The notes under the pieces are model-generated. The model was given only the letters and a program-made list of their open reading frames with translations. It was not told where the DNA came from and did not search any database. Source: Stramenopiles sp. TOSAG23-6 (lineage: Eukaryota). From it: a DNA stretch of 33,906 bases. Each line of letters starts with the position of its first letter. Position 1 is the stretch's first letter. The stretch spans positions 1 to 33,906 of the forward strand of contig LT635953.1 of assembly GCA_900128565.1 (NCBI GenBank), written 5' to 3'. The translations under genes and the position numbers were made by a program. Of this stretch, positions 11,859 to 33,906 are shown one piece after another.

Positions 11859-12087
11859 TTTATGTACTCTATGCTGATAATTTGCAAAACTAATCTCGTT
11901 TTGTTTGCAGAACTATTCTTCACACTTGGCACTACTGGCACTGACTCTTAGACATGATACCCGGTACCTCAATTGATTTTTTCGATTTTTTCTGACCATC
12001 GACCACTCGTATACTCGTCGACCTTTGACACTCTTGTCTTGAGATTCATTCTCTCGACTCTGTTATTTGATCCACAAACAATATACA

Positions 12088-12655: not shown

Positions 12656-12854
12656 ATGTGACTCATGTTTCATGTAGTTCAGTGTATATTCGAAGATTGT
12701 TTTAGAAAATTCTGATTTGTTACTACATGTAGAGTTGATTAAGTCTCCTCTCAACTATATAATTGTTGAAAAATTTAACGAAACATATATTGTTGAGAAA
12801 GTTAAGGTAGATGTTACTCAAGTAAATTCTTTTACACCTTCAATTATTTTTTAT

Positions 12855-13781: not shown

Positions 13782-14187
13782 TTAGTCCAATTTCTAAGAA
13801 ATAAAACTTGAACTTTTGAAAACTGTATCGTACCAGTCAGTAGGAGTAGACTACTTTTATTTTACACATAAGTGCAATAATGAGAGATTTGAATCACTTA
13901 ATTTGTTTGTTGAATAGATTTCAAAATATAATGTTCACGTTATCGGAATTTCAATTGAAATGAATTTCAATTGAAATGAAATAGTCAAAAAATGAGCTCG
14001 AGAGATGGTTGAAAATATCGGCACCCAAATTAGCTAGGGTTAGGGGTTAGCTCTTAGATTCAGTCTTGAATCTCATATTTGACCCAGCAGCCAGTAAACT
14101 TTACTTATCAGATTCTGTCAAGACATTGACCAACGAAAGTCACCAACCACCACGAATTTATTCTTAATACAAACGTAAAATATAAGT

Positions 14188-15142
14188 ATGGCGAGCGATT
14201 CTACAACACCACAAGCATCTCATAAAAATCGTAGCAAGCTTGGTAAGAAGGCTAATTCTAAGAATGCAAAGAAAGCCAAGCAAAGTCGAAAGGTAAAAGT
14301 TAAGTCTAAGAAGACAACCCCAAGCACATCTGTCCCAACTGTGTCTCGAGTGAGCAAGGCTAAGCTTCTTGCAGCAAAGATATCAAGACAGGAACTTGCA
14401 GTTTTGAATAATCCATGTTTTGTATTGGTATCTAAGCGAGTACGTGCTGCGAAAAAGAAGCTTCAGCGAATAGTTGACTTGGAAAAGTCAAAGGCACAGG
14501 GCAAGGAGCTCGATGCTGCACAATTGCAGTCTCTAAAAGGAAAAAGTCTTGTTGAAACGAAATTGATTGAAGCGGAGAAATTAAAAGAGAACATGATGCA
14601 GGCCGCCAAACAACAGGTATTAGCATCAGAGGCTCAAATGGAAGATGCGATTTCTAAGTTAATCAAATTGTTTGTACTCGCACAACGTAGACCTGATGAC
14701 TCGTTGTTACAGACTGCTTTGGAGTCTATATTTCCGTCTCGGATAGTTTCAATTGAGAACGATGTCATGAAAGCAACTAGTCGTGCATTGATGTTCATTG
14801 AAAATTCAGAAGCGACTATTAATCGTCATAAAAAGATGGAAGAACATGTGACTTATAAAAGTATTTCTGAACATGTTTCCTCTGTTGCAAAAGAAGTACA
14901 AGAAGAGGAAGTGACAGCGGCAGAAGAACTTGTAAAGAAGGAAAAGGAGTCGAAGGAAAAGGAGACAATTGCGGTGAATAAATATGTTTCCGCTGATGAT
15001 GTCGAAGCTATCGAAAAGGATTCTCTTCCCATTAGCAAAGACTATATTCATGTAAATTCCACTGAAGTTAAGGCTCAAATGAATTTAAACTCTAAAACGA
15101 AATCTCAACGTCGTCAGGGAAAGCGACAGAATGAGCAAAAGC

Positions 15143-15186
<44 letters not shown>

Positions 15187-15741
15187 CTTAATTGGCAACA
15201 AATGCAACAACAGGAATTTGTAGAAGAAGTAAATGTTTCTCTTGTAACTGGAGAATTAGAAAATAATTATAATCATGAAACTTGTACTAACATTAATGAT
15301 ACGCAAGAAATTAATGCATCTACTGGTTGGAATGACGTTGTGACATTAGGTGGATGGGATGCTGCTCTACAATCAGAATGTGACGTGAATCAGAATATAT
15401 CTATTCCACCAAAGCCACATTCTAAAACCAAACTCAATGGAAAACAAAATGGAAAACAAAATGGAAAACAAAATTTTAAACAAAATTTTAAACAAAATGG
15501 AAAACAAAATGGAAAACAAAAACAAACAGGAAAACATTCTGCAAAACAACAGCCGCGGAATGCTTCTCAAAACGTATCCAAACAACGTGGTGCATCTCGA
15601 CGCGGAAATAGATCTTATGGGCGTGGAAAAGGTAAAGGTGATAATCGGCAAGGTGGAGAAAATGGTCAGTTGAATCACAAATTTCAAAAGAAAAACACCA
15701 ATAAGCGAACTTCATCACCTAAGAAGTCAACTAATGTATAG
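14188..15741 (+). CDS. Caprin-like RNA-granule protein (helical N-terminal domain, polyQ, RG-rich tail)
   Basis: VSKRVRAAKKKLQRIVDLEK...GKELDAAQ resembles the Caprin N-terminal helix (KK.RNL.KK...L..DQ). Low-complexity tail RGASRRGNRSYGRG. Confidence 0.55.
15142..15186 (+). repeat. (CAA)15 polyglutamine microsatellite
   Basis: Pure CAA run in frame. Confidence 0.97.
15436..15519 (+). repeat. 12-bp coding minisatellite (NGKQ/NFKQ x7)
   Basis: Units aatggaaaacaa and aattttaaacaa. Confidence 0.9.
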
Positions 15742-16258
15742 ATTATATGACCTTTACTTCATTGATCGCAGAAACTGATGCTATGCGAGGAAGTGTTAAT
15801 GAATATGCGTTTATTTGATAAATTAGTACTGCTATTATGTTTTACTATCTTGGAATTTATTTATATGTTAAAATTAAAAAATCCCAAATTATTATACTGT
15901 ATTCATTATGAATGTCTTTTCGATTATACACTTTCAAAACATATTTTTTAAAATTTATCGGCTCATAAAACCCCGTAGTAGAACATTGTATGTTATTAAT
16001 GTTAATGCTAAAGAATACAAGAGGAGGAACTGAAAGTCAGCTACAGTATAGGACTATTGTAGCAAATTCGGAATTTTTTAATAGTAGCAAAATTTGACGT
16101 CATCAAATTCAAAATGAGGTTTTCTTTCTGCATTGTCGTGACTCCAAGACTCATGGTCAGTCACTCACACATAAATTATTATTTTCATTCATCACCATGG
16201 GCAAGATTAAGCTTGCAAGTTAGCACACTTAAGCCAATTGTATTTTGTTACGAGGAAT

Positions 16259-19200
16259 ATGCCGTGTCAGACTACTTTGAATCATCAAAAAGGTGAAGAA
16301 ATTATATTCCCGTTTCCTTTCCCACCCTATGATATCCAGAAATCGCTGATGTCTAGTATATTTAAAAGACTTCAAACCGGTGGTGTTGGTATCTTTGAGA
16401 GTCCGACGGGTACAGGGAAGAGTTTAAGTATAATCAATAGCGCACTACTTTGGCTTAAATGTTACGCACCTCCAAACTATGACGTTCTTGCGGGAAATAG
16501 GAAATTTGAGCAAAATGGAAAAGCTATTGCAAAAGTTCCAGCTGTAGCTTCGTCTTTCAATTCGTCTGACGATGAAGAACCAGATTGGGCTACTCAATAT
16601 GAGTCCGCAGCAGTGAGATCTCTGCGAGAGCGTCATGAATTTGCAGAAAAACGATGGCAGGCTCGAATCTTGGCACTACTTCAAAATGCAGAAGGCTCCG
16701 ACAACTTAAACCGTAAACGTGGCCGTTGGTCTAGAGGCCACCACAAGGGTTCACGAGCAAGCACAAAATCTAAATTATCTAAAAAAGTACTTTCTGACAA
16801 CAAACAAGAGAATTCAACGATATGCGATGATGAAAATGACGATGAATTTCTTGTGGATGCATATGATAGCGATGATGGCGTTAAAGAGGCATGGTGTACC
16901 AGCAGTAGTAGTAGTGATGCGGATGGTTTTAATTCTGATGATGACGACACACCTCTTAGTGTTCGGAAAGTAATTTACTGTACTCGAACACATTCTCAGC
17001 TCTCACAGTTCATGAGTGAAGTTAGAGAAACGACATTTGGAAATCCCGTTGGTAAATCTCGTACAAAAGAAACATCATCGATGATAGAACATTCCGGTAC
17101 CAAAAGGAAACTCTCTTCTACTGATAGTTCTATTGAGCCATTATATGTGAGATGTATGTTTTATTTTTTTTAATTTATATTTGTTTTTCGTACGAAATTT
17201 TGTACCTAACGAATTTTATTTGAAATTTTTTTTGAAATATTTTTCCAAAATATATGTATTGCATTAGGATCTAGAAAGAATCTTTGTATAAACGAAAGTG
17301 TTAAAAAACGGGGAGGGACAAGCATAAACGAATCGTGTCTCGAAATGCAAAGAAATGCAAAATCCATTAGTAAAACATCTGATAAGAATATAAAGAAGGG
17401 AAGTTGTCCTCATTTTGATAAAGGTCCACAAAAATTGTTTGGAGACCATGCGACTGTCAAAGTTCGTGATATTGAAGATTTAGCAGCACTTGGTAAGAAT
17501 ATGGGATCTTGTCCATATTACGGAGCTCGAAAAGCTGTACCTTTAGCAGAATTGGTCACAGTTCCTTATAATATGATTCTTCATAGTGGAACACGAAATC
17601 GATTACAGTTGCCATTGAAGGGAAATATTGTAATATTTGACGAAGCACATAATATTATTGATGCAATTAATAATGCTTACAGTTGTTATGTAACTCATGA
17701 AATTCTAATTGCAGCTCATAGAGAACTTTCACAGTATCTTCAACGATATAAAAGTCGACTGAAAGGTCGAAATATTATTTTTATCAATCAATTATTATAC
17801 GTTTTACGGTCCATTGCCAAATTCATTGACAAGTCTAAAATATCTCCAATTTCAAATGTGAATGGGAAAAGTGTCAATGAAACATCCAATAATAATGTGT
17901 TTTCTCTTAGTGAGTTTGTAACAAAAGCTGGTATTGATCATATAAATATGTTCAAACTTGATAAATATATTGAACGTAGTAAAATAGGACGTAAAGTTCA
18001 AGGTTTTACAGAAAAGTATGTGAAACCTTTTGAAGTAGAGTCTGATGATAACCATAACCCTAATATCCAAACGCAAAAGAAATCTTCAGGCTCAGCACTA
18101 ATGCAGGTCAGGGAATTTCTCATGGCACTTACAACAGCAAATGGTGACGCAAGAGTTCTTATTACAATTGGAAGTGTAAAGATTGTAATGCTCAATGCCT
18201 CAGTACATTTCAGAGAAATTGTAAATGAAGCCCATGTACGTTTTTCAAATTGAATTTTGAGTTTTTTTTTTCATACGAAATTTTGTACCTAACAAGTTTT
18301 TGAAAAAAAAAATTGAAATATTTTTATACAATATATGCGGTGCTTCTTTTGGGCGGTACCATGCAGCCAATTCAAGATATCGTGAATCAATTATTTTGGC
18401 ATGTAGAATCTGATAAAATTACTACACTTTCTTGTAATCATGTTGTTCCTGATTCAAATATAATAGCTCTAACTGTTGATAAAGGACCTATGGGGAAATC
18501 TCTTAAGTTTACTTATAAAATACGAGAGCAAGTAGAGACACAAATTGAACTTGGCCGTCTGATTGCGAACTTATGTATATGTATGTTTTATTTTTTTTCA
18601 AATTCTAAATTTTTTTTCGTACGAAATTTTGTACCTAACAAATTTTAGGTTTTTTTTTTGAAATATTTTTCCAAAATTCATTAGTTCCTGGTGGAGTTGT
18701 CGTATTTTTACCATCTTTTCAATATTCAAAAACACTTCAAACAACATGGAACAAATCTGGTGGTATATTAAATAGAATTGCAAAAAAAAAGAAAATATTT
18801 TGGGAACCACGTAATGCTATTGATGTGGAATCCACATTATTGGATTATTCATTCGCTATAAAGAAATATAATATTTCAGAAAAGTGTAATCAAAATATAT
18901 CGCCCTTGGGCACTCAAAATCAGAATACTCAACAAGAAAAACAAAATAAAAATCTTACTGGTGCAATATTATTCAGTATTGTTGGTGCTAAAATGTCTGA
19001 AGGAATTGATTTTAAGGATGACTTGGCAAGATGTGTAATTATGGTAGGTTTACCTTTTCCGCCTCCTAATAGTCCTGAACTGAGAGAAAGGATGATCTGG
19101 TTAGATGAACAATCTAATAAAAGGACAATGGAGTTACAGCCACAAGATTCAAGAATTTGCTCAAAAGATATAAAAAATAANAACAAAAATAGCGCTGGTC

Positions 19201-19427
19201 AGGATTATTACGAAAATATATGTATGCGGGCAGTGAATCAGTCTATAGGTCGCGCAATTAGACATAAAAATGATTTTGCTTCAATTGTGTTGGTTGATAG
19301 TCGATACAAAGAAGAAAGAATAAAACGAAAACTTCCAGCATGGATACAAAGGCGTACGAAAGTAGCCGATTCATATGGACAAGTAGCAAAATGTTTAGGA
19401 AAGTTCTATCGATCACATAAAGTGTGA
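16259..19427 (+). CDS. DDX11: DDX11/CHL1 Fe-S DNA helicase; exons 16259-17153, 17256-18235, 18337-18580, 18682-19427
   Basis: [90 protein letters not shown]. The motifs are contiguous only after three family introns are removed. Start codon is uncertain. Confidence 0.93.
17154..17255 (+). mobile_element. Introner-like intron copy 4 (GT...AT, 102 nt)
   Basis: GTATGT...TTCGTACGAAATTTTGTACCTAAC...GAAATATTTTTCCAAAATATAT, with no internal AG. Removal gives [13 protein letters not shown]. Confidence 0.87.
18236..18336 (+). mobile_element. Introner-like intron copy 5 (GT...AT, 101 nt)
   Basis: GTACGT...TACGAAATTTTGTACCTAAC...GAAATATTTTTATACAATATAT. Removal gives [14 protein letters not shown]. Confidence 0.87.
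18581..18681 (+). mobile_element. Introner-like intron copy 6 (GT...AT, 101 nt)
   Basis: GTATGT...TTCGTACGAAATTTTGTACCTAAC...GAAATATTTTTCCAAAATTCAT. Removal gives NLCILVPGG. An in-frame AG lies 3 nt further downstream. Confidence 0.8.
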
Positions 19428-19539
19428 ATGTAAATTTAATATGAAATAAATATACTGTCGTAATTATTTCGTACCTTTGAAATTATAAAATACTTCCATC
19501 ATCTATCTTCCACATAAAATGTTCATAGCCATATAAAAG

Positions 19540-19998
19540 TTAGAATCCTAAATCAGACAACCAGCTCTTCACCCTCTTTGTGTGATTGCCCTTTGCTTCA
19601 ATTCTACCATTATATATTTTAACTTCACTTTCCAAACAAACCTTTTGCATCTCCGTAGCGAGGGCATGGACATCTCCTTCATACTTGCGCAATATTGTTA
19701 CAGTCTTTGAACGACCATTTTTATAGTCGATATACACTGGCAATTGCTTACCAATATCTGAACGGAAAATGTTAAACGGAACATTGCCTGCTTCTTTCAT
19801 ATCACGTGTGTAAACTAAAGGTCTAGGATTTTCTGACCACGCCACTTGGTGTTCACGGCGTTGCTTTTTTACCCAGAATGGAATCATACGCTTATTAATA
19901 ATACGATTTGAATGACTACCACTTCCCCCATGCTTGGTTGCGATTGAGCGGGTGAACATGACTATGGTGTGCTTTGTAGCGCTCATGTTGAAGTACAT
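19540..19998 (-). CDS. MRPL49: Mitochondrial ribosomal protein L49/Img2
   Basis: PFNIFRS...QLPVYIDYKNGRSKTVTILRKYEGD...G.IE.KGNH...VKSWL..LGF is the Img2 signature. Confidence 0.9.
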   Translation of the reverse strand: MYFNMSATKHTIVMFTRSIATKHGGSGSHSNRIINKRMIPFWVKKQRREHQVAWSENPRPLVYTRDMKEAGNVPFNIFRSDIGKQLPVYIDYKNGRSKTVTILRKYEGDVHALATEMQKVCLESEVKIYNGRIEAKGNHTKRVKSWLSDLGF

Positions 19999-20291
19999 CT
20001 TGTAGAAAAACTAATAATATTTCTACAGTAGTGTTTTAGTATAGGTTGGTACTGGTAAGTTCAGTAGACTTTGGCACGTGTTGCGTTGCTTTTTGACACG
20101 TGGCATCGGCATGCATGATTTTTTTGATTTTTTTGAATGACATCAGCAAATAACTCACGACGGACTCACGACCAAAAAAACTGAAAGAATTAATAATATT
20201 TTTAGAGTTTACTAAACTTGTTTCAACAAGAAGATTCTGGAAAAAGACTACAATCCCTATAATCACTACAGTGTAATATCAGACGCGGAAG

Positions 20292-22670
20292 ATGTCGAGC
20301 GATCCATGTTCTAGTACTGTATCAAATCTAGTCTGGCGTGAAAAAAAAAATTCAGTGAACATTGTGCCAATGGTCAAAACTTGGAATGCTAGAGCTACTA
20401 ACAGACGTTTACGCCCAAGCTTGTCACGCTATGTGATGAATCGTCAAATGGGTTGTGGCGGAGGACAACAATACTCACAGTCTACAACTGTACAGTGGAT
20501 GAAACGTCGGCTTATCGTTGGATGTAAAGCTTCATCCCTTGCAAATTCACGAATAAACGTTCTCATGTGTCGAAATGAGTTGGAGGAAGATGTACCACCG
20601 TTTTGTTCCTTTTTCTCCAGATATGCGCTTGGTGGACATGCACTATGTATATCAGACGAAGATGGATGGGTAGAAATCTTAGACTCGCGATTGCCATTGG
20701 ACATCATTGAAAATGCTGAAAGAAAACGTCACCGTTGGCTTGCTCACGCTAACGCAGTATTCGATTTAAAGTGGACGGACTACGACACCAAAATTATTAC
20801 AGCTTCAGGTGATCAAACGGCACGTTTATTTGATATAGAAACACGGAAATTATTGTTAACATTTGAATCTCATAATGGAAGTGTTAAATCTATTTCAACG
20901 CATCCATTAAACCCTCATGTGTACGCTACTGGTGCACGTGATGGCCATTTGATGCTTTGGGATTCTCGTATATCAATGAAAATAGCTGGTTCAAACAAGA
21001 GAAGAGATCGTGGTCGTAGTATTGGCGATACGACGGCAAATACAAATGACTGGATTGTCAATCCTTTCATAAAAGAATACAATGCACATACTCTTCAAAT
21101 GTTCAAACGAAAAAGAAGTCAAGGTTCTATTCCTGTCGACTCTTGTGCTGCTGTTACAACTGTTAACCTCATGAAGGATGGATTTTCATTAATAACTGGT
21201 GGTGCTGCATCAGGTTGTATGAAAGCATGGGATTTGCGACGTTTAAAAGGTAGAAAGAATAAACAAATTCAACATGTCGATGAATTTTGTCCTAGGCGAA
21301 GTCCGGGTAGACCATATGGAATTAGCTCAATTGATGTAGATGAAAGTGGAACAACACTCTTGGTAAACTTTACTAATAATATTATCAATCTCTTTCATTT
21401 TGGTATGTCTAATCCATGCTTCAAGAGTTATAGTGATATAACTGGTAAAGGCAAAGGAAAATGTTGTGATGGGAGGTCAGGTGGGTGTCTTAATCACACT
21501 TCTGGTTTCGTAAAACATCCGTATAATTATGTATCAGACACAAGAATGAGTGACTCTTTCTACGTAAAGGCATGTTTTTCTCCAGATGGTAGACACATAC
21601 TAGCAGGTTCTTGTGACAGTAAAGCATATATTTGGCCAGTACTATCATGTGGTAGTTCTTATGACTTTGATGGAATTTCTTCTTTTGCACCTGATGAAGT
21701 ATCTATACCAAAGGATGTAATATTAGAACGTCGTAGGCAACAAAAATATTCTTCCGAAGAAATTCATAATGTGAAACCTATACGAATTCTTTCTGATGCT
21801 CTTTCAGAAGTAACCTGTGTAGATTGGTGTAAAATTGACCCTCAAAGAATTGTTACTTGTTCAGATGATTCTATTGTTAGATGTTATCAATTGCCCAATG
21901 CATGTGACGAAGAAAAAACATATTTCAGTAATCCCTACCTAGTATATAAGACAATATTACCTGAATCTCAAAAAAATATACAAAATAATAACAATTCACA
22001 GACAAACACTCAAAATAAACCGAAAAAAATCCAATACACTCTTGCGAATAAAAGTATCAGATATTCTACTATAAAAAATAATATGATATCAGAGTCTATG
22101 GAAACCTCAGCTGGTAGATCTGTCAAAGATAAAATAAAATATAGTGAAAATATTGAAAAAAATAAATCATTTTTATGGCCAAATAAAGAAGTAAATTTAA
22201 AACAAAAAAAAGAAGCTCGTTTAATAGCAATAATGAGAGCAAAAATAAAAGCTGAAAAAATAAAAGAAAACAAAAGAATTAAAGACGAGGAAAATAAATT
22301 ACATAATGGGAATGGAGAAACTGATAAAACGGATATTCTATCCAAGATTTCACCTCTTAGTCGATATTTTCGAATCAAACCAAGAACAATTAGCAAATTA
22401 ACAGATACAGATGTTGTATCTGACAATAAAGAAAATGTATCACAGCATGATGATTCTTGCACAAAAAAGCAAAGTAAGACAAGTTTTAATAATTCTGATA
22501 GTAATTACCAAGCATGTATTATAAAGAAGGTATTAGATGACTCTAGAGAGAAAAACCAAATAAATACAAAAGAATCTGAAAAAGATCTATCGTGTAGTAG
22601 TAGTCCAGAGAAAAAACGACAGCGAACTATTTTAGACTTATGGGGGCTTAATAATATACTTAACTTATAA
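20292..22670 (+). CDS. DTL: CDT2/DTL (denticleless) WD40 substrate receptor of CRL4
   Basis: WLAHANAVFDLKW, TASGDQT, HNGSVKS, TGARDG, SFYVKACFSPDG, EVTCVDW, TCSDD; C-terminal PIP-like box QRTILDLW. Confidence 0.9.
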   Translation: MSSDPCSSTVSNLVWREKKNSVNIVPMVKTWNARATNRRLRPSLSRYVMNRQMGCGGGQQYSQSTTVQWMKRRLIVGCKASSLANSRINVLMCRNELEEDVPPFCSFFSRYALGGHALCISDEDGWVEILDSRLPLDIIENAERKRHRWLAHANAVFDLKWTDYDTKIITASGDQTARLFDIETRKLLLTFESHNGSVKSISTHPLNPHVYATGARDGHLMLWDSRISMKIAGSNKRRDRGRSIGDTTANTNDWIVNPFIKEYNAHTLQMFKRKRSQGSIPVDSCAAVTTVNLMKDGFSLITGGAASGCMKAWDLRRLKGRKNKQIQHVDEFCPRRSPGRPYGISSIDVDESGTTLLVNFTNNIINLFHFGMSNPCFKSYSDITGKGKGKCCDGRSGGCLNHTSGFVKHPYNYVSDTRMSDSFYVKACFSPDGRHILAGSCDSKAYIWPVLSCGSSYDFDGISSFAPDEVSIPKDVILERRRQQKYSSEEIHNVKPIRILSDALSEVTCVDWCKIDPQRIVTCSDDSIVRCYQLPNACDEEKTYFSNPYLVYKTILPESQKNIQNNNNSQTNTQNKPKKIQYTLANKSIRYSTIKNNMISESMETSAGRSVKDKIKYSENIEKNKSFLWPNKEVNLKQKKEARLIAIMRAKIKAEKIKENKRIKDEENKLHNGNGETDKTDILSKISPLSRYFRIKPRTISKLTDTDVVSDNKENVSQHDDSCTKKQSKTSFNNSDSNYQACIIKKVLDDSREKNQINTKESEKDLSCSSSPEKKRQRTILDLWGLNNILNL

Positions 22671-22712
22671 TTTATTATTAAAGAATGTTTTTATCATCAC
22701 ATTAAATGTCTT

Positions 22713-25700
22713 CTATGTTTCCCAAATTTTAGCGTTGTTCCATTCTGCGGAGTTTTCTCCGTAAACGCTTCGGAATTCCTCTTCGGTGTATGCGGTGCCA
22801 TCACTAGGATCAATCCGCTTTTCAACATAGTATAATGGCTGATTATCATCTGATTGGTATGCGTCATTATCAAAGTGATCTCCATCGGTATTATAACCAC
22901 CTTCATCAGTTTCGTATCCAAATTCGTCATTAAGAGCCTCCAACGAAGTCATATCATCAAGTATGCTATTTTGTGGATAATCTTGGTCTTGCTCTGCGTA
23001 GTTGATTTGATTAATTCCTGTGTCATCTTTCTTCTCGTCCGCATCCACCCCGGCTTCGTTGATGTTTTCGTCATCGTCACTATTATCACTATCACTTTCT
23101 TTGTTTTTGTCACTATCGTCAAAACCTCCTTCCGGTATCGGCGGTGGTGGGGGTCTTTCCTTTACTTTTTTCTTGAGAATATTCTTGAAACTAGAAACCT
23201 TTTTCTTTTCAATAACTTTTACGACGCCACCTTCGTCGTTTTTCTCGTTATCATCATCGCTATCATCATCGCTATCTTCATCGTCGCTACTACTACTTTT
23301 GCTGATTTGCTTGGTGTCCTTTACCTTTCTTTTTTTTCTACGTAAAAGACGTTTAAACTTCTTTGCCAAAGGAACGTCCGAATCTGAATCAGTGTCAGAA
23401 GAAAGTACAGCTGCCCGTTTCTTCTTAGGCTTTTCAAAAGGAACAATTCGAATATCGCCTTCTGGCATTTTCCAGCTAGTCTCACCAGATGCTCCGCAGA
23501 AATAGTATGTTCTTCCAGTTTTTTTGTCGTGCAACGAATTCCAAAGCATAATACTGTTGGTGTCCTTAATTTTCTTGACAAAGCCTCCCACAGTAGCGCG
23601 GACGTCTTCCTTTCCACGAATTGCTCTTCCTAAAAATGAAACTGCGTTTGCTAGGTCTTGTGCTTGCAATGATGTTGCTGCACTGACAAGGTTCGAAGAA
23701 ATCCTTGCGGCTTTTGTATCCATTGCGTTTTTATATGCATCTGTATCCTTTGCGACACCCCACAATTTTGAAAGAGCTTCCGCTGTTTCACTTTCACGAA
23801 TTTTCGTCATTGTACTTTCAGAACCAGGTGGGCCCTTCAACACCCCACCAATATCGATCCCTTTCTCTCTTACACCATCCGCGAGTCTTGCCGCGAACAA
23901 TGCTACTTTCGAATGTTTTGGCAACTTATAGCATTTGACTCCTTTTACTCTAGTGCAATTTCCCTGACTATCTAACTTCACATTCTTCGAAGGAACAGTT
24001 GCAAAATTTCCGAATCCGTCCCATTTTTCTACCAGCATTATTTGTAATACGGTCTCTATGCTCTCCTTCTGTTGTTGCTCTAAACGAATTTTATCAATTA
24101 GCCTTTGTGCTGGCGATTTCAATGAATCCATTAAAATTGCTGCGTCAGTTTTTTTATTGACAATCGCGTTACGTCTCTTCTTCTTCTTCGATTTTCTCCT
24201 CGCACGTTTAACTGTGAACTTGCGCCCAACAATGAGTATACGGTCGTTTTCTTTCAAAAGATCAGTGATATCAACTGTCGTGTGAAGCGTTCTCTTATCT
24301 CTTACCAAAGTAACGGTTCCCGGCAGTTCCTCACTGAATTTATCTTCCATTATAATAGAAGCAGCTGATCGACCAATATTTTTGAAACGAGTTGACGTCA
24401 ACTTTTGCCGATCTTGTTCTTGTCTAACCTTAATACTTTCAGCTCGCTCCCAAAGTCGCTGCTGTCTCATACGCTCACGCCCTGCGCGACGGATCATCTT
24501 TCCACGATACAATGCTTGAAATTTTGTAGCGGACTGATGCATCGCCATTAATTGGAACTGAGCTCGCAGTGCATCTCGTTCTGCTAGCTGTTCTGCTTCT
24601 ATACGAGCTCTTTCTTCTTGAATTTTCTTATTCCAAATATCAACTAGAAGCAAAGGTTCAGGTTTCGCATTGTGAAGCATCCTTTGGCCATGAGAGTGAA
24701 CTTTTTCAAAGCAAATTGTGCAATATGGTTCATCGCACTCAATACACCACCACTTAACTGCGTAGTCCTCACACTCTACACATGTTGCAACAATTGGTGT
24801 CCATGAGTGAGACTTTTTCATGTGTATATTTTCAAAGCAATTGTCACAAAGTTTAGCTTTCTTTGGAGTTTTCCTATGAGCAAGCTTACACGCTAAACAG
24901 TGGCGAGTTGCCACTTGATAACCACATTCCCCACAGATGTCAACAGGGAGTTTTGTGTGCTTCTTCCGTTTACCTGAACAGTGTGTGTCGTCATAACATG
25001 CACTACAAAATTGTGTCTCACATTCCCGACAGACAACTTCAACACGTTCTTCTTCACATTGCGAACATAGAACAACAAATTCACGCTCAGGAGTCGGAAG
25101 TGTAAAAATATTGTCAAGATCTTCCGCTTCAACCCAATAAGCTTGATCATTCGCATCATAATCCCAATAACCATCTCGTAGGCAAGCAGGTCGATGCCAA
25201 GACTTTTCATTTGTTCTTTTGTTGAAATAATACGGTTCTTTAGTTTCAGGGTCCATAAATTTTACAAATATATCATTGATAACAGCCCATCTACGAGCTT
25301 TAGCCTGGTATCTCCTGACCATTAATTGAATACGAATAACCCAACCACCCTTTCGCTTTGCTTCCAACCATGCTTCCTTTGCTATTCTAGAAAGTGCCAT
25401 GAGCTCCTTTCCCTTATACCTTCGCCAGGATGCAGCGCACACCCTTTGAGCCCATGTTAAATCATCTGTTACTTTCGACTCAAGTTTCTTTCTTGCGCTC
25501 TTGTTAAAAACTACCCCGTTGGAATATAATAAATGATTATGGATAACTAGTATTAATCTAATTTCACCTGGTGTCAATGGATTGAAAATTCCTCCCAAGC
25601 GACCAGGTGTTCTCGTGTTCGGAATCAATTTTCCAATTCTATGTTGTGCTCTTAGTTCGTTAAAATTTGTCGCTGCTGGATACTTAAGATTTGCTATATC

Positions 25701-28700
25701 TAAGAGAGCGTCGAGAAACTGTGAAAAGTTTAGGACACGCTCGTTCTTTTTTTTGTATTTAGCAAAGATAATATCGCACTTAGTAGCAGTTATTTTTGAT
25801 TTATCCAAAAGATTATGTGCTTGTGATATCATCTTTTTAAAAGAAGAATTGTCTATGGTTAATTGCTTTGAGGCTCCCTGCTCCTTTGCGAAGTTACAAA
25901 ATATACCGCCAAAGCCCCACACACCCAAAACTTCAGGGCNTATCCCCTTTTTCTTTTTTATACGTATAGTTCGTAGAGTAAGAACGTATTTCCAGTACTT
26001 TCTCGTATGAGCATATTCGGCACGCCCACACCACCCGACATCCTCAAGCCGACGCATTGAATCTCTCAAGTTTGAAGCCAATATACGTCCGTGATATCCA
26101 CGGACCATCGATTGAATTTTTGCCACAACACCCTGGTATCTTCTCATCCTATCTAATAGTGCTCGAAATTTTTTACGTTGCATTGATCCTTTCAAATATC
26201 TTTGAAGAACTATCGCCATTTTCTTCTTTCTTGCAGAGTTCCACTTGAGAAAGCGCCGCTGTATTTTCGAAGCAGCCGGTCCATATCTTTTCATCAGAAC
26301 TCTCTTTTTCATTAGATGTCCACGTATCCTACTCTGTACGAGAATGACAGCATTCATTCTTTTCTCTATTTTTGACTTAATTCTTGCTTTTTGCATTAGA
26401 TGGATTTTACACTTTACTTTTTTTCGACCAAGCTTCCCACGATAGCATTTTTGAACTAAAATTGCTGCTTTCTCAAGCTTTCGAGCTTTGTTAAATATAC
26501 CTAGTTTTACTGCCCGTCTTAGCTTGTGCTTGTTTTTCTTCAGAGCTTGCATATCAACGACAGTTTTAAACCTACCTCCAAAATACGATAGCTCTTGTAA
26601 GTCAGCCTCTCCTGCTTGTTTTTTTTTCTGTCTTCGTTGAGCGGTAATACGAATCTTTGACCAATATAAATCTTCCCGAATTTTTTTGCAAGCCTGCACC
26701 TGTAGAATCCGCCGCAAGTGATACTGAACTTTTTTCTTTGCAAGGAAACGTCTTCTTTCTTTGAATGTTCCAGTGATGTATCGCTGTACTCTCAGCGCCA
26801 TCTTGAATTTTCTAGCTTTTATTAAATTTCGAAGCTGCTTATATCGTTCTATACCACGCCACCATTCTTTAATATAATTAGCTGCCCCGTGTTTTCGAAA
26901 TAAAAGAAGACGTTCTGCCCGTTCCCTCTCACGTTGAACCTTGGCTCGTCGCATACGCCGCAAAGTCAAAAGAAGCTTAACATGCTTCCTATCTCTAAAA
27001 GCTCGAAAAATTCGCTGTGCATGAACTGCAAGACGTATTTTTGCTTCCTTCAGTATTTTTAGGAAAAACATCAATGCTTTTGAGTGGTGTATCCGGTAGT
27101 GCTGCTGCACTTTCTTACAGCTTTCTACCAACAGTTTGAATTTTTTTGTACTCTTTCTTGATTCGTAACCACGATAGAGTCTTTGTAAGTGAATCGTTCC
27201 TTGAATACGACGGAGAACTCTTTCACGAGAATCTTTCTGTGCTTCCCGTTCCTGATTCCGAATTCTACCCAACTTGTCCTGGATATCCTTCCAACCCCAA
27301 TATATCCTATAACGCCTTTGAATAATTGTTGCGTATTTTATTCGACTTGCTAAAATTTGTCGCTGTATTTCTTCTCTCCACCTATGCAAACCGAGCTCAA
27401 GGTATTTTATGATCATGTTGTTTAAAGATTTCTTAATCATGTTAACGAAACGTTTCATTCGGAACCCATAGACTTCATCGTTCATTGCTTTTGCGACTAA
27501 ATTCCGTGGTAACCTTTGCAACATCGCAGACATCATTCTCGTGCTTTGATATTTCATTTCATTTACTTGCAACCGTGATTCTTCGGCACTATGCTTCAAA
27601 ATATTGTGTCTTTGTTTTGTTGGAGGATCAATTGCCTGAGGAGTTTGTATTAAATTTGTACTTGTTAAACCAGTAGCTGATTTCAGGCAATGTGCTGACA
27701 GACCATGTAACACAAAACCTGGTTTTTTGACAGAGGTTGAATGCAGAGCTATTGGAGTCTTTTCTATATTTATAACTTTCGGATCTGTTTCTTGTTCTAC
27801 ATTTTCTGTTTCAGAAAACCCCTCATTATTTTCTGAATGTAAACAAATGTCTTTATTATTTTCTCTATCAAGTATGTTGTTCTCATGAATTTGTATATCT
27901 TTGCTTTTTGAANTTGAAGTCCTCACAACATCTTGATGTCTTGATATTTTCGTTTTTGTAGAATCTTTTTGTGAAACTTGTGGTTTTGTAAAATCTTTTT
28001 GTGAAACTTGTGGCAATGGTGTTGTTCCAATATAAGACGTTGGAAATTTATGTTTCCTAGCGAGTGTTTCATGTTGTTTCTTTCGAAGTTCATGAAATGG
28101 ATCCAAATGATCACTTTTCGTAAATTGTTTTTCAATCTGTTTAATTGCTTGCCTTACGGCAAAGTTGGGCGCAGGAATTTTATCTAGTTCTTTTGCCATA
28201 TGAGGTGAAATTGCACTGAGTATTGGTAATTTCGGTGGTGGTGTATATTCTATTGGTTTTTCATCTTTATTTAGGGATGATTTATATCCAGGTATAATAC
28301 CTCGTTTCTGTAAAATGTATTTTCTGTGTTGCTGTGCTGTTCTTTGTAAATGATATAATTTAACCTGAAAGTTTGTATCATTTTGCATTCGTTTGTATCG
28401 TATATTTTGCTCTAACGCCTTCGCTTCATCCTCAAGTTCTTTCGGTCGAGATAAAAACTCTTCAATTGTTAGTTGTGATTTCCTATCAGATAAATGCATC
28501 GGTTGTAGTGAATATTCCTCACGTCTATCTAATAACCCTAATCCTACAGTTGGATTACTTGTGACAGATTTTGATATTTTACGTCTAATTGTACTACTTC
28601 GTGGCTTATTTGCCACTGAGCGAACTGAAGATAAGGGGGGGACTACAAAGCTCCCACCTGGTCCAAATGAACCGTCTTCGGCATATCCCGATCCAATTAT

Positions 28701-29042
28701 ATCACCTATATTGTACGAACCAATACTTACTAAACTATTCATAGGACCAAGTTGGTCCTTTTTTTGATTCTCAGTCAGTCTCTCTTGACGATAACGCTTT
28801 CGACGGCGTCTTTTGATTTTAGATTCAGATATTTGGTTCTTTTTTGTGTAAGGAGATATACCAAACTGACTAGATATAATGTTACGTGAAACCTTTAGGG
28901 AGGAAGCGTTACCAGTTTCAATTTGCGATAGTAAGTCTTGAATGTCAGTCATATCCTGACCAACTGGCTCGTCATTGAAGTGATCTATAGGAGTAGAACT
29001 TTTCCGACGAGCACCTACTCTAAAGAATTTTTTGTCAGACAT
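22713..29042 (-). CDS. 2109-aa multidomain protein: IQ repeats, p25alpha/TPPP-like domain, two WW domains, B-box zinc fingers, acidic tail
   Basis: Many IQxxxRG motifs. IDNSSFKKM...LLDK.KIT.T..DIIFAK.K....R.LNF.QFLDAL is p25alpha-like. WW: DPETKEPYYFNKRTNEKSW and KTGRTYYFCGASGETSW. Repeated C..C...C..C...C..C...H arrays. Single open frame. Confidence 0.85.
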   Translation of the reverse strand: MSDKKFFRVGARRKSSTPIDHFNDEPVGQDMTDIQDLLSQIETGNASSLKVSRNIISSQFGISPYTKKNQISESKIKRRRRKRYRQERLTENQKKDQLGPMNSLVSIGSYNIGDIIGSGYAEDGSFGPGGSFVVPPLSSVRSVANKPRSSTIRRKISKSVTSNPTVGLGLLDRREEYSLQPMHLSDRKSQLTIEEFLSRPKELEDEAKALEQNIRYKRMQNDTNFQVKLYHLQRTAQQHRKYILQKRGIIPGYKSSLNKDEKPIEYTPPPKLPILSAISPHMAKELDKIPAPNFAVRQAIKQIEKQFTKSDHLDPFHELRKKQHETLARKHKFPTSYIGTTPLPQVSQKDFTKPQVSQKDSTKTKISRHQDVVRTSXSKSKDIQIHENNILDRENNKDICLHSENNEGFSETENVEQETDPKVINIEKTPIALHSTSVKKPGFVLHGLSAHCLKSATGLTSTNLIQTPQAIDPPTKQRHNILKHSAEESRLQVNEMKYQSTRMMSAMLQRLPRNLVAKAMNDEVYGFRMKRFVNMIKKSLNNMIIKYLELGLHRWREEIQRQILASRIKYATIIQRRYRIYWGWKDIQDKLGRIRNQEREAQKDSRERVLRRIQGTIHLQRLYRGYESRKSTKKFKLLVESCKKVQQHYRIHHSKALMFFLKILKEAKIRLAVHAQRIFRAFRDRKHVKLLLTLRRMRRAKVQRERERAERLLLFRKHGAANYIKEWWRGIERYKQLRNLIKARKFKMALRVQRYITGTFKERRRFLAKKKVQYHLRRILQVQACKKIREDLYWSKIRITAQRRQKKKQAGEADLQELSYFGGRFKTVVDMQALKKNKHKLRRAVKLGIFNKARKLEKAAILVQKCYRGKLGRKKVKCKIHLMQKARIKSKIEKRMNAVILVQSRIRGHLMKKRVLMKRYGPAASKIQRRFLKWNSARKKKMAIVLQRYLKGSMQRKKFRALLDRMRRYQGVVAKIQSMVRGYHGRILASNLRDSMRRLEDVGWCGRAEYAHTRKYWKYVLTLRTIRIKKKKGIXPEVLGVWGFGGIFCNFAKEQGASKQLTIDNSSFKKMISQAHNLLDKSKITATKCDIIFAKYKKKNERVLNFSQFLDALLDIANLKYPAATNFNELRAQHRIGKLIPNTRTPGRLGGIFNPLTPGEIRLILVIHNHLLYSNGVVFNKSARKKLESKVTDDLTWAQRVCAASWRRYKGKELMALSRIAKEAWLEAKRKGGWVIRIQLMVRRYQAKARRWAVINDIFVKFMDPETKEPYYFNKRTNEKSWHRPACLRDGYWDYDANDQAYWVEAEDLDNIFTLPTPEREFVVLCSQCEEERVEVVCRECETQFCSACYDDTHCSGKRKKHTKLPVDICGECGYQVATRHCLACKLAHRKTPKKAKLCDNCFENIHMKKSHSWTPIVATCVECEDYAVKWWCIECDEPYCTICFEKVHSHGQRMLHNAKPEPLLLVDIWNKKIQEERARIEAEQLAERDALRAQFQLMAMHQSATKFQALYRGKMIRRAGRERMRQQRLWERAESIKVRQEQDRQKLTSTRFKNIGRSAASIIMEDKFSEELPGTVTLVRDKRTLHTTVDITDLLKENDRILIVGRKFTVKRARRKSKKKKRRNAIVNKKTDAAILMDSLKSPAQRLIDKIRLEQQQKESIETVLQIMLVEKWDGFGNFATVPSKNVKLDSQGNCTRVKGVKCYKLPKHSKVALFAARLADGVREKGIDIGGVLKGPPGSESTMTKIRESETAEALSKLWGVAKDTDAYKNAMDTKAARISSNLVSAATSLQAQDLANAVSFLGRAIRGKEDVRATVGGFVKKIKDTNSIMLWNSLHDKKTGRTYYFCGASGETSWKMPEGDIRIVPFEKPKKKRAAVLSSDTDSDSDVPLAKKFKRLLRRKKRKVKDTKQISKSSSSDDEDSDDDSDDDNEKNDEGGVVKVIEKKKVSSFKNILKKKVKERPPPPPIPEGGFDDSDKNKESDSDNSDDDENINEAGVDADEKKDDTGINQINYAEQDQDYPQNSILDDMTSLEALNDEFGYETDEGGYNTDGDHFDNDAYQSDDNQPLYYVEKRIDPSDGTAYTEEEFRSVYGENSAEWNNAKIWET
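27954..28013 (-). repeat. 30-bp tandem duplication (PQVSQKD[F/S]TK x2)
   Basis: aatctttttgtgaaacttgtgg repeated with a 30-nt period. Confidence 0.85.
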
Positions 29043-29353
29043 ATCTAAATCTTTATTCTGGCATTTTCAGTGATTCCTTGGCCATGTGGCCGAAAACATG
29101 GCGTGGTGCTGATCAATCTTTCAATTTGTTTGTATGGGGGGGTACCAAGCATATTAGTAGTAGTGTCTCTCTCATGTCAGTTACATACAATTGTTGACTA
29201 CTAGTAGCAGCTGAATTTTAAAGATTTCGTGTAATCGCGCTGAGAGTCAGTTTAATTTTCACTCGAGGTTGAAGGAAGGAGTGCTACAAAGTACTTAGTT
29301 GTATATATCAGAGGCGCCCTCACATATAATATCGAGGTGCTCTTCCAGGGGCC

Positions 29354-32300
29354 ATGGCTACCGTTGGCTCTTTACAGAAGAGTACACCCAGTTCTATACC
29401 TGGTGCATATCCTCTAAATGCTTCTGAACATTTGAAGGAGCTAGTATCCCCTCATATAGAATCGTTCAACTATGTGATTCATGATGGTCTTGAAGCAGCT
29501 ATTAATAGCCTTGCAACTTATCCAACTGTTATTACAATGGATAATGCAAAGCAAAAGAAGAAGAAATCAAACATAAATACAAAGAAACACAATACCCGAG
29601 CAGATTCGTCTAGCTCTTCAGGATCATCTAGTTCTGATGATAGTGATTCGGAGTCTTCAGAGGAAGAACGTGACGGAGATGTTCTCCAGTTGTGGATTGA
29701 AGACGCTGAGATTGGCTACCCCACTAGGTCAGATGATTCCCTTGACTCTCGATGTTTTCCAGCAGAATGTAGACAACTTGGTACAACGTATGATGCGCCA
29801 CTTTGGTTGACTATTTGTCGACGTGTTAATAATGGTACAGTTATTCGTATGCAACAAAAAGTTGGAGATATTCCAATCATGGTTCGTTCTGACCGTTGTC
29901 ACCTGAATGGTTTGTCTCCAAAAGAACTTGTACGTCGTCATGAGGATGCGGATGAATTTGGTGGATATTTTGTATGTAATGGTATCGAACGTTGTATCCG
30001 TATGTTACAAATCCCACGGAGAAATATGGTACAATCTCTTGATCGTCCGTCTTTTGCAAATCGTGGTCCGAAGTATTCCTCTAAAGCAACTTCAATTCGA
30101 TCTGTGACTGCAGATCAATCTGGTACTACTGTAACTTGTCACTACCAAACTGATGGTAATGTTATGGTTAGATTTCTTGTGCGTAAACAAGAGTTTTTTG
30201 TTCCAGTAATTCTTTTAATGCGAGCACTAAAAGAAGTAACTGATCGTGAGATTTACGATCGTCTCGTTGGTACGGGGAATAATTCATCAACTGATAAGGT
30301 AAATAAGAGTTCTTCATTTGTTGCTGATCATGTAGAAGTTATTCTTAGAGATGGGCGTACATATGGTGATATGTATTCTCGTACACAGTGTTTAGCTTAC
30401 CTTGGTGCTCGATTCCGTGTTTTGTTGCAACAAGGACTATCGTGTGAATTAATGTCTGATGCACAGGTTGGCCGTGCTTTGTTGCATCGTCATATTTTTG
30501 TGCATCTTAGTCAGTCATCTAAGATTGTGAACGATAATGCGGATAGTGCAAAGTTTAGTCTTTTGTTATTTATGCTTCGCAAACTTTTCTCTTTTGTTGA
30601 AGGTACGAGTGTCGCTGATAATTCTGATGCTCTTTCATCACACGAAATCCTCACTTCTGGTCATTTGTACATTAAAATTCTTAAAGAAAAAATCGAAGAC
30701 TTCATGCTTAATGTAAAACAATTTATTCTTGCTGATCTACGCCGTGATAGCTCTCGTGTGTCATTCAACAGTGAAACATACATTAAACGATCGTTAGACC
30801 GCCAAAAAGATTTAGGTAAAGAATTATACTATTTTCTTGCTACTGGTAATTTGAGATCTACGTCAGGTCTTGATCTGATGCAGAATTCCGGATTTACTAT
30901 TATAGCAGAGAAATTGAATTGGTTGCGGTATATTGCTCATTTTCGATCAGTACGTTTTATTTTTTTTCAATTTTTTTATCTAATTTTTTTTCGTACGACA
31001 TTTCGTACCTAACAAATTTTAGTTTTTTTTTTGAAATATTTTTCCAAAATACATGTACATCGAGGTAGATTTTTTGCGGAAATGAAAACAACAACGGTAC
31101 GTAAACTGTTGCCGGAATCGTGGGGATTTTTATGCTGTGTTCATACTCCTGATGGTTCCCCATGTGGACTTCTTAGTCATTTATGTGCCGCTGCAAGGTA
31201 AGTTTTTTTGAACGAAACAAATTCTTTCTTTTTTGTTTTTCTTTCTTTGTTTTCTGTAACATTCTATTGTTTTTTGTATAACTAGTGAAATGATTACAAA
31301 TTATTGACATTTTTGTCAATGTGCCGCTCCAGACTTAAAGAAGCTTCAACGGGCGTCTTGTAGACAGCAGGCAAGCACCCCACCATTTTCTTGCCGGATG
31401 ATCACTATAATACAATCAATCAATTAGAATTTTCAATCAATATATTTTAATTATCAATGTCACAATCAATATCACAACCAACTCATTGTATACATTTTGT
31501 TTTATTAATTATACACAATAGAATTGTTCCACAAGCTCAGGATACTTCCAGACTTCCAAGTGTATTGGTTGCATTAGGAATGATTCCAGATGTTGAAGAT
31601 ACGAGATTGCTTCTACCTCGTTCTCAATCTGTTGATGGTGAAGGCAAGGGATATCTTCCAGTATTGCTTGATGGGCGCGTCATTGGTGCTGTTGCCGTTG
31701 GACGTGCAACTAAAATGGTGTCTGAATTACGTAGAATTAAAGTAACAGAGTTAGCATCTCGTGTAGCTGCTGGCAAGTGTAACAGTAGTTACCTTACACC
31801 AGTTTCAGAATGCTCAGATGTGAAATTAATCGGTAAAAATCGAGGCGTTCCTGTGGATCTAGAATGTGCATTAGTACTACCAATGTCTGCTGAAGGAGGT
31901 GGACCATTTCCTGGACTATATCTTGCAGCTGAAGCTGCCCGATTGGTTCGTCCAGTTCACCATCTTGGTGCAAATGCTCCCGAGTGGATAGGTACATTTG
32001 AGCAGATGTTTATGTCAATTGGTTGTCAGGATGCAGAAGCTGAAGACGCTACTCATCGTGAAATCGATCCTATGAATATTCTCTCTGTAGTTGCTAGTCT
32101 AACACCTTTTTCGGATATGAACCAAAGTCCGCGTAATATGTACCAGTGTCAGATGGGTAAACAAACAATGGGGACACCATGTCACAATTGGATTAATCGT
32201 CGTGATAATAAAATGTATCGCATTCAACATGCACAAGCGCCTATTGTTCAAAATAAAGCACAGGTTCACTATCGTATTGATGACCACAGTAATGGATGTA

Positions 32301-33553
32301 ATGCTGTTGTTGCTGTATTGAGTTATACTGGTTATGATATGGAAGATGCAATGATTATTGGTAAAGGGTCGTATGATCGTGGCTTTGGACATGCATCTGT
32401 GTACAAAGTGAAAACTGTTGACTTGTGCGAACGCGAAGCCAATCCAAAAGAACGTTTTGGAGTTGAAGTTCCGGTTGAAGGAAATGTAAGTGAATGTAAT
32501 GGAAATACCACACATGGCAAAGGACAACAACAAGGCGCAGAGAATATCGATTCGGATGGTCTTCCACGTGTCGGAACAAGACTTGTCAAAGGTGATGCTA
32601 TGTATTGTACTGTAGATAAGACTACGGGTATAGGTCACTACGGAGTATATAAAGATAATGAACCATGTGTTGTGGAAGATGTACAACTTCTTGGTCCTGG
32701 TATGGGCAAATCTGAATTTACCAAAATTAGTATGAAGCTACGATACAATCGTAATCCAGTAGTAGGAGATAAATTTTCAAGTCGTCATGGACAAAAAGGT
32801 GTATTATCCTTTCTATATCCGCAACAAGATATGCCATTTACTGAAAGTGGAATGTCGCCTGATATTATTATCAATCCACATGCTTTCCCTTCTCGTATGA
32901 CAATTGGTATGCTTGTTGAAAGCATGGCTGGTAAAGCTGGAGCTCTTCATGGTCATTTTCAAGATTCAACTCCTTTTCGCTTTGATGAAAATCACCGTGC
33001 TGTAGATTACATGGGTGAACAACTAAAAGCTGCAGGTTACAATTACTATGGTAGTGAACCTATGTACTCTGGAATTACAGGTGAAGAAATGCAAGCAGAT
33101 ATTTTCATTGGTTGTGTTTATTATCAAAGACTTCGACATATGGTCAGCGATAAATCTCAGGTAAGATCAACTGGACCAATGAATTCACTCACAATGCAAC
33201 CTGTAAAAGGCCGTAAACGAGGTGGTGGAATCCGTTTTGGTGAAATGGAACGCGATTCTCTCATTGCTCATGGAACATCTTTCCTCTTGCAAGATCGTCT
33301 TTGCAATAGTTCAGATAGACATAATGCATGGGTATGTTCTAGTTGTGGGTCAATGCTCGGATTCCAATATCACAGAAAAGGCGGCGCAGCAATTCCTGGA
33401 GGTAAAATCATGCACGAAACTGCCCAAAATGCTTTACAATGCCGCTCTTGTAATAGTAAAAACATAAAGCAAACATCGATGCCTTATGTTGTACGTTATT
33501 TAGCTAATGAACTTGCAGCTATGAATATCAGAATGGGTGTGGAAGTATCATAA
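29354..33553 (+). CDS. POLR1B: RNA polymerase I second-largest subunit; exons 29354-30949, 31055-31197, 31522-33553
   Basis: [90 protein letters not shown]. The second intron is canonical GTAAGT...AATAG (31198-31521). Confidence 0.97.
30950..31054 (+). mobile_element. Introner-like intron copy 7 (GT...AT, 105 nt)
   Basis: GTACGT...TTCGTACGACATTTCGTACCTAAC...GAAATATTTTTCCAAAATACAT. Removal restores HFRSVHRG. Confidence 0.9.
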
Positions 33554-33906
33554 ATTAAATGAGTCAAAGACAAGCTTAATAAGTTGGAAAAATAATGAAA
33601 ATAATCTATTCGAAAAAGAAAATAATGAATGGGTGTGGATATTCTTTACTAACTCCGATTTTTTTTACTATATTATGTCTATTTGTCGCGTGTGATGTGC
33701 ACTATGAATTTGATCACTATAAAAAACTTTAAAAAAGCGACTTTTAAAATATTTTGTTTTTTATATTTTGTTTTTTATTTTGTTTAAGCGCACGAAATCA
33801 AATATCACAAAAAATCAAATAATAAAATTTTTTGGAACAGGAGCGCGAAAGTTCAAAAAGTCACAAAACACAACAACTTGAAAATAACAACAACTTCTTC
33901 TTCTTT

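Follow-up and report, generated by a model that had tools for sequence, protein, structure and literature searches.

A marine stramenopile genome with a probable introner-like family that lacks the AG acceptor

The RPA2 joint and its homologs

The 33,906-nucleotide (nt) contig LT635953.1 of the uncultured Stramenopiles sp. TOSAG23-6 (assembly GCA_900128565.1), here called the window, carries RPA2, the gene for the second-largest subunit of RNA polymerase I (Pol I). RPA2 is interrupted by a 105-nt insert that begins with GT and ends with AT. This insert is probably one ~100-nt, transposon-like copy of a high-copy, introner-like family with a non-AG acceptor. It recurs in the window with a common anatomy, always in sense orientation to the host gene. 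Its removal restores the encoded protein residue by residue at four conserved joints, and canonical introns coexist with it.

RPA2 lies on the forward strand, from the ATG at 29354 to the stop codon at 33553. Exon 1 ends with cat ttt cga tca (HFRS). From 30950 on, the frame is broken by GTACGT...CCAAAATACAT, ending TACAT, and it resumes at 31055 as gta cat cga ggt (VHRG). The first-pass annotation of this DNA had described an insert at 30950–31054 with an in-frame TAA (31010–31012), and a normal GT-AG intron 143 nt further downstream. All coordinates of the insert were correct, and the downstream intron was found as GTAAGT...AG at 31198–31521. The in-frame TAA is part of the branch-like CTAAC of the element (31009–31013). 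In the following list, P0013 is the predicted RPA2 protein of the nearest relative, treated below.

Features of RPA2 (window positions):
29354–30949 (+): exon 1, 532 codons, ends HFRS; 75% identical to P0013 residues 5–532; last residue corresponds to S. pombe 478
30950–31054 (+): insert, family copy c7, GT...AT, 105 nt; nhmmer E value 5e-16; in frame
30950–30955 (+): donor GTACGT; both canonical alternatives start from its second GT, at 30954
30992–31013 (+): conserved core CGTACGACATTTCGTACCTAAC, including the branch-like CTAAC (31009–31013) and the in-frame TAA
31021–31022 (+): AG, 10 nt past the branch A, at which the 69-nt canonical alternative would end (12 residues inserted)
31052–31054 (+): probable 3' end CAT; YAY in 8/8 copies
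31063–31064 (+): AG at which the public gene model ends its 111-nt intron (start 30954), with loss of the H and G of VHRG
31055–31197 (+): exon 2, VHRG...LCAAA plus two bases of an Arg codon; 48/48 residues identical to P0013 residues 533–580
31198–31521 (+): intron 2, canonical AG-GTAAGT...AATAG, 324 nt; exon 3 begins at P0013 residue 581
31522–33553 (+): exon 3 including the stop codon, from the open reading frame (ORF) and homology to P0013

The split motif is highly conserved, as the first-pass annotation had claimed: 104 of the 109 RPA2 homologs retrieved have it uninterrupted. H-x-R-x-[VI]HRG was present in 94 of them, and 10 more had a variant with [VI]HRG contiguous. The remaining five comprised three truncated fragments, one sequence reading into an intron and one public model of the RPA2 studied here. 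No insertion or deletion at the HFRS/VHRG point was found in any natural homolog among the 109. In three solved Pol I structures, the last residue of exon 1 (S) aligned to S. pombe 478, yeast 502 and human 471, and the first residue of exon 2 (V) to S. pombe 479, yeast 503 and human 472. The exons also adjoined without gap or overlap in 5/5 further homologs. It had been proposed that only a GT-AT cut, or a slid equivalent, rebuilds FRSVHRG, and this proved right. By comparison with the homologs, exact excision of 30950–31054 is the sole way to rebuild the invariant motif, and from this we infer a GT-AT splice of RPA2.

A more distant relative, P0002, is a 257-residue protein from a Joint Genome Institute (JGI) metagenome contig of 1704 nt. 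It is 54% identical in the RPA2 region and ends LSHFRSVRELFTFCSTFF. It reads HFRSVRELF..., which looks like an intron starting GTnCG at the same HFRS/V site. Such an intron could be a parallel insertion or an older shared intron.

The sequence of the window recurs in seawater metagenomes and metatranscriptomes, as revealed by a sequencing-run look-up. Assembled contigs from one DNA run (X3, an independent 2024 metagenome, aligned at ≥90% likeness) and three RNA runs (X6, X7 and X8, the last of polyA RNA) were compared with window positions 16000–33906. Between RPA2 and X3, 7/8 of the differences listed were synonymous and one was L to I. X3 depth over the RPA2 exons was 7.7–10, and 5.7–8.7 for neighbouring genes. 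The rest of the gene had been called intact, and with open ORFs and this synonymous bias RPA2 indeed looks functional and under constraint. One X3 contig seemingly ran from exon 1 to ~30977, ~28 nt into the insert, with its end deduced from contig offsets. If this end holds, the insert was present in the population sampled by another study in another year.

A repeat family with GT...AY ends

The first-pass annotation had taken the insert for a one-off. It is in fact one of seven copies in the window, with one more in a metagenome, of an introner-like family with GT...AY ends. The common ends strengthen the original claim, and "one odd intron" becomes a "class of introns". The 22-nt 3' part of the insert occurred three times in the window, with none expected from 100 shuffles. 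A repeat search and an nhmmer profile gave exactly seven full-length copies, all on the forward strand and spread over four genes. An eighth copy, in sense orientation inside an ORF, lies on metagenome contig L036, the sole locus matched by a 20-nt core in metagenome contigs. The anatomy of the family was drawn from these eight copies. A 16-nt core also matched 35 loci in viral contigs; these were rejected as chance seeds (nhmmer E values ≥0.03, with the seed alone aligned).

Other copies in the window:
251–351 (+): c1, GTACAT...CAC, within the 3' portion of a Dcc1-like gene; no in-frame GT/GC-AG alternative
3259–3355 (+): c2, GTCTTC at a diverged 5' end; alone among the copies, it loses the frame with the family ends
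3814–3918 (+): c3, GTACGT...CAT, in the same host gene as c2
17154–17255 (+): c4, in a DDX11/Chl1-like helicase gene; identical to P0110 across the joint
18236–18336 (+): c5, helicase; 12/12 homologs ungapped; canonical options delete GGTMQ
18581–18681 (+): c6, helicase; joint NLCI-LVPGG; 12/12 homologs ungapped; ending the intron at a TAG 3 nt further on would cost one residue

The copies are 97–105 nt long. Their first bases are GT in 8/8, and the donor is GTAYGT in 6/8, with GTACAT in c1 and GTCTTC in c2 (a GTRNGT-like, U2-type donor). A branch-like CTAAC stands 40–47 nt before the end in 7/8 (GTAAC in c1) within the common branch-like TACCTAAC, and a T-run follows. The putative branch A of c7 is at 31012, 42 nt upstream of the 3' end of the insert. 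All copies have A at position -2, with T at -1 in 7/8 and C in 1/8. The terminal dinucleotide is hence AT in seven copies and AC in one (YAT or YAC), and the U2-type terminal AG is absent. In half of the copies (4/8), the stretch from branch to end is free of AG. Only this register gives uniform end dinucleotides (GT, AT) in c3–c7; one base earlier, the ends would be TG-CA, TG-TA or AG-CA. A frameshift or homopolymer error of the assembly was considered and rejected, given seven independent copies with the same kind of end.

Orientation and frame were also consistent across the family. Each of the eight copies reads in the same sense as its host gene and lies inside an ORF. Minus-strand coding sequence, roughly equal in amount in the window, contained no copy. 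The longest upstream and downstream ORFs were joined in frame by 7/8 copies, with a chance of 1/3 each (P for at least 7/8, ~0.003).

Three copies fall into one gene, a DDX11/Chl1-like helicase (DEAD_2 and Helicase_C_2 domains). At its joints (c4, c5 and c6), none of the 12 aligned homologs had a gap, and the nearest relative, P0110, was identical to the joined window sequence across c4 and c5. The canonical in-frame options in this gene delete ALGSR or the helicase motif GGTMQ, or drop the conserved V/I before P (c6). Together with RPA2, all joints that could be compared with homologs were ungapped (4/4). The three helicase copies thus appear, from the protein alignments, to need the same GT...AT cut as RPA2. 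For the gene hosting c2 and c3, neither a Pfam family nor a homolog was found.

P0013 (RPA2, 75–76% identical) and P0110 (helicase, 62% identical) come from one source, as g4303.t1 and g4301.t1. Their gene numbers are two apart, so that in the relative, as in the window, the two genes appear to be linked. In a comparison at protein level, the two predictions were contiguous at all four joints. This would fit a syntenic relative without these introns and, with it, a possible recent, lineage-specific gain in the lineage of the window.

X3 bins with a family copy had a summed depth of 1369–12853, versus 5.7–10 elsewhere, and 2201/7100 aligned X3 records fit two places of the window stretch. This excess, together with the multi-place records, shows that the family is high-copy in nature.

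The ends of the element were compared for traces of insertion. AT stands before the GT and also forms the last two bases in 6/8 copies. In c7, CA stands before the GT instead, and the conserved Ser codon implies that this site never had AT there. A 4-nt repeat, GTAC or GTAT, occurs at the intron start and just past its end in c7 and c4 only. These repeats are at most candidate target-site duplications. The ends are weakly inverted, (AT)GTA..TTTT versus AAAA..TAC(AT), and pair in 83% of cells, compared with 25–65% in slid controls. In the predicted fold of the c7 pre-mRNA, both joints lie in one stem (z = -3.3). Such pairing of the element's ends is suggestive only.

Within the element, a palindrome-like TTTCGTACGAAA, a 12-nt perfect palindrome, was noted at approximate window positions 30989–31000, 17196–17207 and 18615–18626; it is imperfect in c7, c3, c5, c1 and c2. 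GTAC recurs in donor, core and branch of the element, and the palindrome might serve for protein binding or as a dimer site. The tail of the canonical RPA2 intron 2 (31505–31521), TATACACAATAG, resembles the family tails CACAATACAC, ACAATACAT and ACAATATAT except at its ending. A canonical GT-AG intron in the neighbouring FKBP gene has CTAAC ~37 nt before its AG (hand count), a spacing similar to that between branch and end in the family.

Removal of the element and alternative explanations

A functional RPA2 would require the pre-mRNA to lose exactly 105 nt (GT...AT), with an ordinary GT-AG intron following. The element carries a U2-type donor (GTAYGT), a branch site of yeast-like type (TACCTAAC) and a T-run. 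Donor and branch match the major-spliceosome consensus and only the last base deviates, so that removal by the major spliceosome is the simplest reading. It would most likely take a non-AG acceptor 40–47 nt past the branch, and terminal pairing of the inverted ends, (AU)GUA...UAC(AU), may help. Removal at the RNA level, the spliceosome as agent and the choice of the 3' site are what we infer from these motifs. Two intron classes had been said to be processed from one pre-mRNA; the canonical intron does stand alongside the insert, and the GT-AT splicing beside it would follow from the frames.

We propose, tentatively and with somewhat less confidence than for the family itself, a more specific model. 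In this marine stramenopile, which seems to belong to MAST-3 judging by the gene-model name of the source, the spliceosome or a terminal pairing that is encoded by the element and guides it would pick the YAT/YAC end of the introner by position, even in essential genes (RPA2 and the Chl1/DDX11-type helicase gene) and beside GT-AG introns. The terminal AT may stem from the insertion target.

Several points weigh against GT...AY removal. A non-AG acceptor is mechanistically unusual for a U2-type intron, and the terminal pairing shows no covariation. With the family ends, copy c2 loses the frame, which is kept with the AG at 3329 or (hand count) with ...TAC at 3353. Canonical GT-AG introns that preserve the frame are available in c7 (69 and 111 nt), c2, c3, c4, c5 and c6, and for RPA2 the public annotation selected one of them (111 nt). 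Base 31054 lacks unique independent DNA confirmation, with X3 contigs breaking inside the repeats. A second RPA2 locus may exist elsewhere in the genome. Among the matches listed, no RNA contig bridged 30949/31055 or any other family joint.

The RNA contigs that aligned were short exon pieces. At ≥99% identity they covered RPA2 exons 1 and 3 in part, with matches from all three RNA runs (X6 records 9, 10, 11, 13 and 15; X7 record 24; X8 records 28, 30 and 31), and none reached the joint. Among the matches listed, no RNA contig crossed the helicase joints 17153/17256, 18235/18337 and 18580/18682 either. The joints that the read comparison did list were cross-joins between family copies. Bins with a family copy had zero depth in X8, and so had 4/5 of these bins in X6, but high depth in X7; uncovered bins were taken as no evidence, and nothing was drawn from them.

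Canonical splicing of the RPA2 insert was considered in two forms. The first-pass annotation had stated that, from the GT at 30950, nearby acceptors are out of frame. This holds for the AGs ending at 31022, 31064 and 31068 (lengths 73, 115 and 119 nt). The second GT, at 30954, had been missed; from it, introns of 69 nt and 111 nt are both in frame, so GT-AT is one of several solutions that keep the frame.

In the longer form, GT(30954)...AG(31064), SVHRGRFF becomes SVRRFF, the mRNA encodes HFRSV-RR-FFAEMK, and the VHRG codons at 31055–31066 are an unused relic from before the insertion. We regard this as quite unlikely. The 111-nt intron is in frame and leaves no stop codon, and after a recent insertion the relic codons might still be undecayed. 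It is used by the deposited RPA2 models P0016 and P0260, which form one 90% cluster; P0260 shares the junction of P0016, and hence does not represent a copy without the intron. Searches at protein level for transcripts of this species across the joint gave none at >80% identity besides these two. However, the models derive from a pipeline that merges protein alignments, transcript alignments and ab initio models (PMC5778133). They have 988 and 1005 residues versus ~1256 expected, and skip many other conserved stretches of open frame. The cited parts of this marine stramenopile (MAST) single-cell genome paper mention introns in the methods only (PMC5778133). The 111-nt option would also lose the H and G of a motif that is lacking in no fetched natural homolog, and its donor GTTTTA is poor next to the family donor GTACGT. 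The same logic fails at c4 and c5, where ALGSR or GGTMQ would be deleted, and at c1, which has no in-frame option. As a separate observation, P0016 and P0260 force a GT-AG intron through VHRG, and the gene sets of the assembly may be systematically damaged at family sites.

The shorter form, GT(30954)...AG(31022), would turn the last 32 nt of the element into exon and insert 12 residues into the motif. It is very unlikely. The intron is in frame, c6 and c2 likewise have an in-frame AG soon after the branch, and in Aureococcus some introners leave extra bases in the transcript (PMC9860276). Against it, no homolog has an insertion at the RPA2 site, a choice of this type at c6 would add 11 residues where 12/12 homologs are ungapped, and it has no AG to use in the four copies that lack one between branch and end. 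Moreover, work in yeast indicates that an AG ~10 nt from the branch A, as here, may be too close for use. A nested (twin) intron was rejected as well: after removal of 30950–31022 no GT remains in 31023–31054, and no arrangement puts an AG before 31055.

The transposon might instead merely disrupt this allele or copy, with function provided by another allele or locus and no GT...AT splicing. The high copy number of the family and the missing RNA joint among the matches listed are compatible with this, and another RPA2 copy may lie outside the window. We nevertheless consider disruption unlikely. Strict sense orientation inside ORFs, the empty minus-strand coding sequence and the in-frame joints of 7/8 copies argue against it, as do four insertions into two conserved genes whose ORFs are otherwise intact. 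The RPA2 differences from X3 are mostly synonymous, the X3 depth on its exons is like that of its neighbours, and P0260 shows the same junction.

The boundaries of the element could also be right and the machinery different, namely the minor (U12-type) spliceosome or a structure-guided, non-spliceosomal excision of the kind proposed for Amoebophrya and for the nonconventional introns of euglenids; we judge this quite improbable. U12-type introns have the donor RTATCCTT and a branch box TCCTTAAC 10–20 nt from the 3' end. In every copy, the family donor GTAYGTTTT departs from this consensus at +5 and +6. A TCCTTAAC-like box is absent 10–20 nt from the end; the final 25 nt read GAAATATTTTTYMMAAWAYAY, and the sole branch-like motif is 40–47 nt upstream. 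With donor and branch boxes absent and the branch distance wrong, a U12-type intron was rejected, even though GT-AT is a documented rare pair (7 U12-type cases in human plus mouse; PMC1557818). Structure-guided excision has in its favour the pairing of the inverted ends, the predicted c7 fold, and the Amoebophrya introners, with inverted and direct repeats at non-canonical borders (PMC7789003). The missing covariation and the just moderately lower slid controls speak against it, and donor and branch fit a U2-type, yeast-like consensus.

Finally, the insert could be removed from DNA by programmed elimination, similar to the internal eliminated sequences (IES) of ciliates, with the assembly representing a germline-like form. 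The short direct repeats in 6/8 copies, with AT preceding the GT and again closing the element, would suit such a process. We hold it to be extremely unlikely. An X3 contig seems to carry the boundary of exon 1 and insert, and no DNA joint skipping the insert was among the matches listed. Strong donor and branch motifs and strict sense orientation are needless for DNA excision. To our knowledge, no such process has been described in stramenopiles.

Relation to known introns and other features of the window

Removal of the element by splicing, as preferred here, makes the family comparable to the introners of Micromonas, Aureococcus and many aquatic protists (PMC9860276, PMC12130899). It resembles them as a short, sense, high-copy family of putative introns in unrelated genes, with its own splice signals, weakly inverted-repeat-like ends, an mRNA length that insertion would leave unchanged, and apparent absence from the same sites in a close relative (here for predicted proteins only). 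The ends differ. In the cited parts of these sources, known families have GT, GC or GA (or AT) donors and AG (or AC) acceptors, whereas the family here has AT in 7/8 and AC in 1/8 copies. It also has no clear target-site duplication (AT...AT in 6/8, none in c7). Introner surveys build on annotated introns with familiar ends, and the 2025 survey dropped families with unfamiliar ends unless confirmed by RNA (PMC9860276, PMC12130899).

The introners of Amoebophrya are likewise repeated introns of a marine protist that break the GT-AG rule, with inverted repeats joining their ends and direct repeats of 3–5 nt overlapping the borders (PMC7789003). As far as that source is cited here, they have no consistent ends and no clear donor or branch. 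In contrast, GTAYGT, CTAAC and the A at -2 are conserved in our family, which deviates in the last base only and coexists with canonical introns in the same gene.

Animal GT-AT introns have the same terminal dinucleotides; besides the U12-type cases, one conserved U2-type intron is found in DGCR2 (PMC1557818). DGCR2-type cases combine an optimal U2-type donor and a pyrimidine tract with a non-AG end, as seen here (PMC1557818). Unlike these singletons, the element is part of a repeat family with thousands of metagenome contig pieces and without U12 donor or branch boxes.

The family also belongs beside large populations of non-GT/AG introns that are precisely removed in other lineages. Their end rules differ: AG-AC and similar ends occur in Fritillaria, and structure-defined ends in Euglena. 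Such populations were reported from Fritillaria and other tunicates (PMC13326754), Euglena (PMC12501133) and diplonemids (PMC12621601), in the cited parts of these papers neither as a GT-AT class nor in stramenopiles. In tunicates, non-canonical splicing has been linked to altered U2AF and small nuclear RNA (snRNA) features (PMC13326754). A literature search gave no paper that joins "GT-AT" with "introner", although supplementary tables of the surveys, which were outside this search, may list such families. On the cited evidence, GT-AT is so far known only from rare single introns (PMC1557818).

The intron-terminal AG is among the most conserved splicing signals, and known exceptions are rare singletons (U12-type, DGCR2) or remodelled lineages (tunicates, euglenozoans, Amoebophrya). 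If the family is spliced as proposed, it would offer a clean natural system for how the second splicing step selects its site. Introner surveys and gene finders restricted to GT/GC-AG would then overlook whole intron classes. The public RPA2 model is visibly damaged by this restriction, and published gene sets of these uncultured grazers may hold systematic errors wherever the family has inserted. If the terminal AT comes from the insertion target, the transposon would impose its own splice-site code on the host.

The window is AT-rich (GC ~31–42%), its genes are densely packed, and an Rfam scan gave zero matches, also to the minor-spliceosome snRNAs U11, U12, U4atac and U6atac. Single N bases occur at 19181, 25940 and 27913. 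On the minus strand, 22713–29066 is one unbroken ORF of 2117 codons without a family copy. By eye, it has many IQ-like repeats, Cys-rich B-box-like segments and WW-like motifs, and 21/28 of its listed differences from the X3 metagenome were synonymous. At 15118–15551, inside the ORF 14179–15741, lie a poly-Q run (CAA) and a repeat with a period of 12 nt that codes NGKQ units. The ORF hosting c2 and c3 contains an exact 45-nt tandem duplication (3674–3763, two copies), in which the peptide NESKNKKICADKPRI is repeated.

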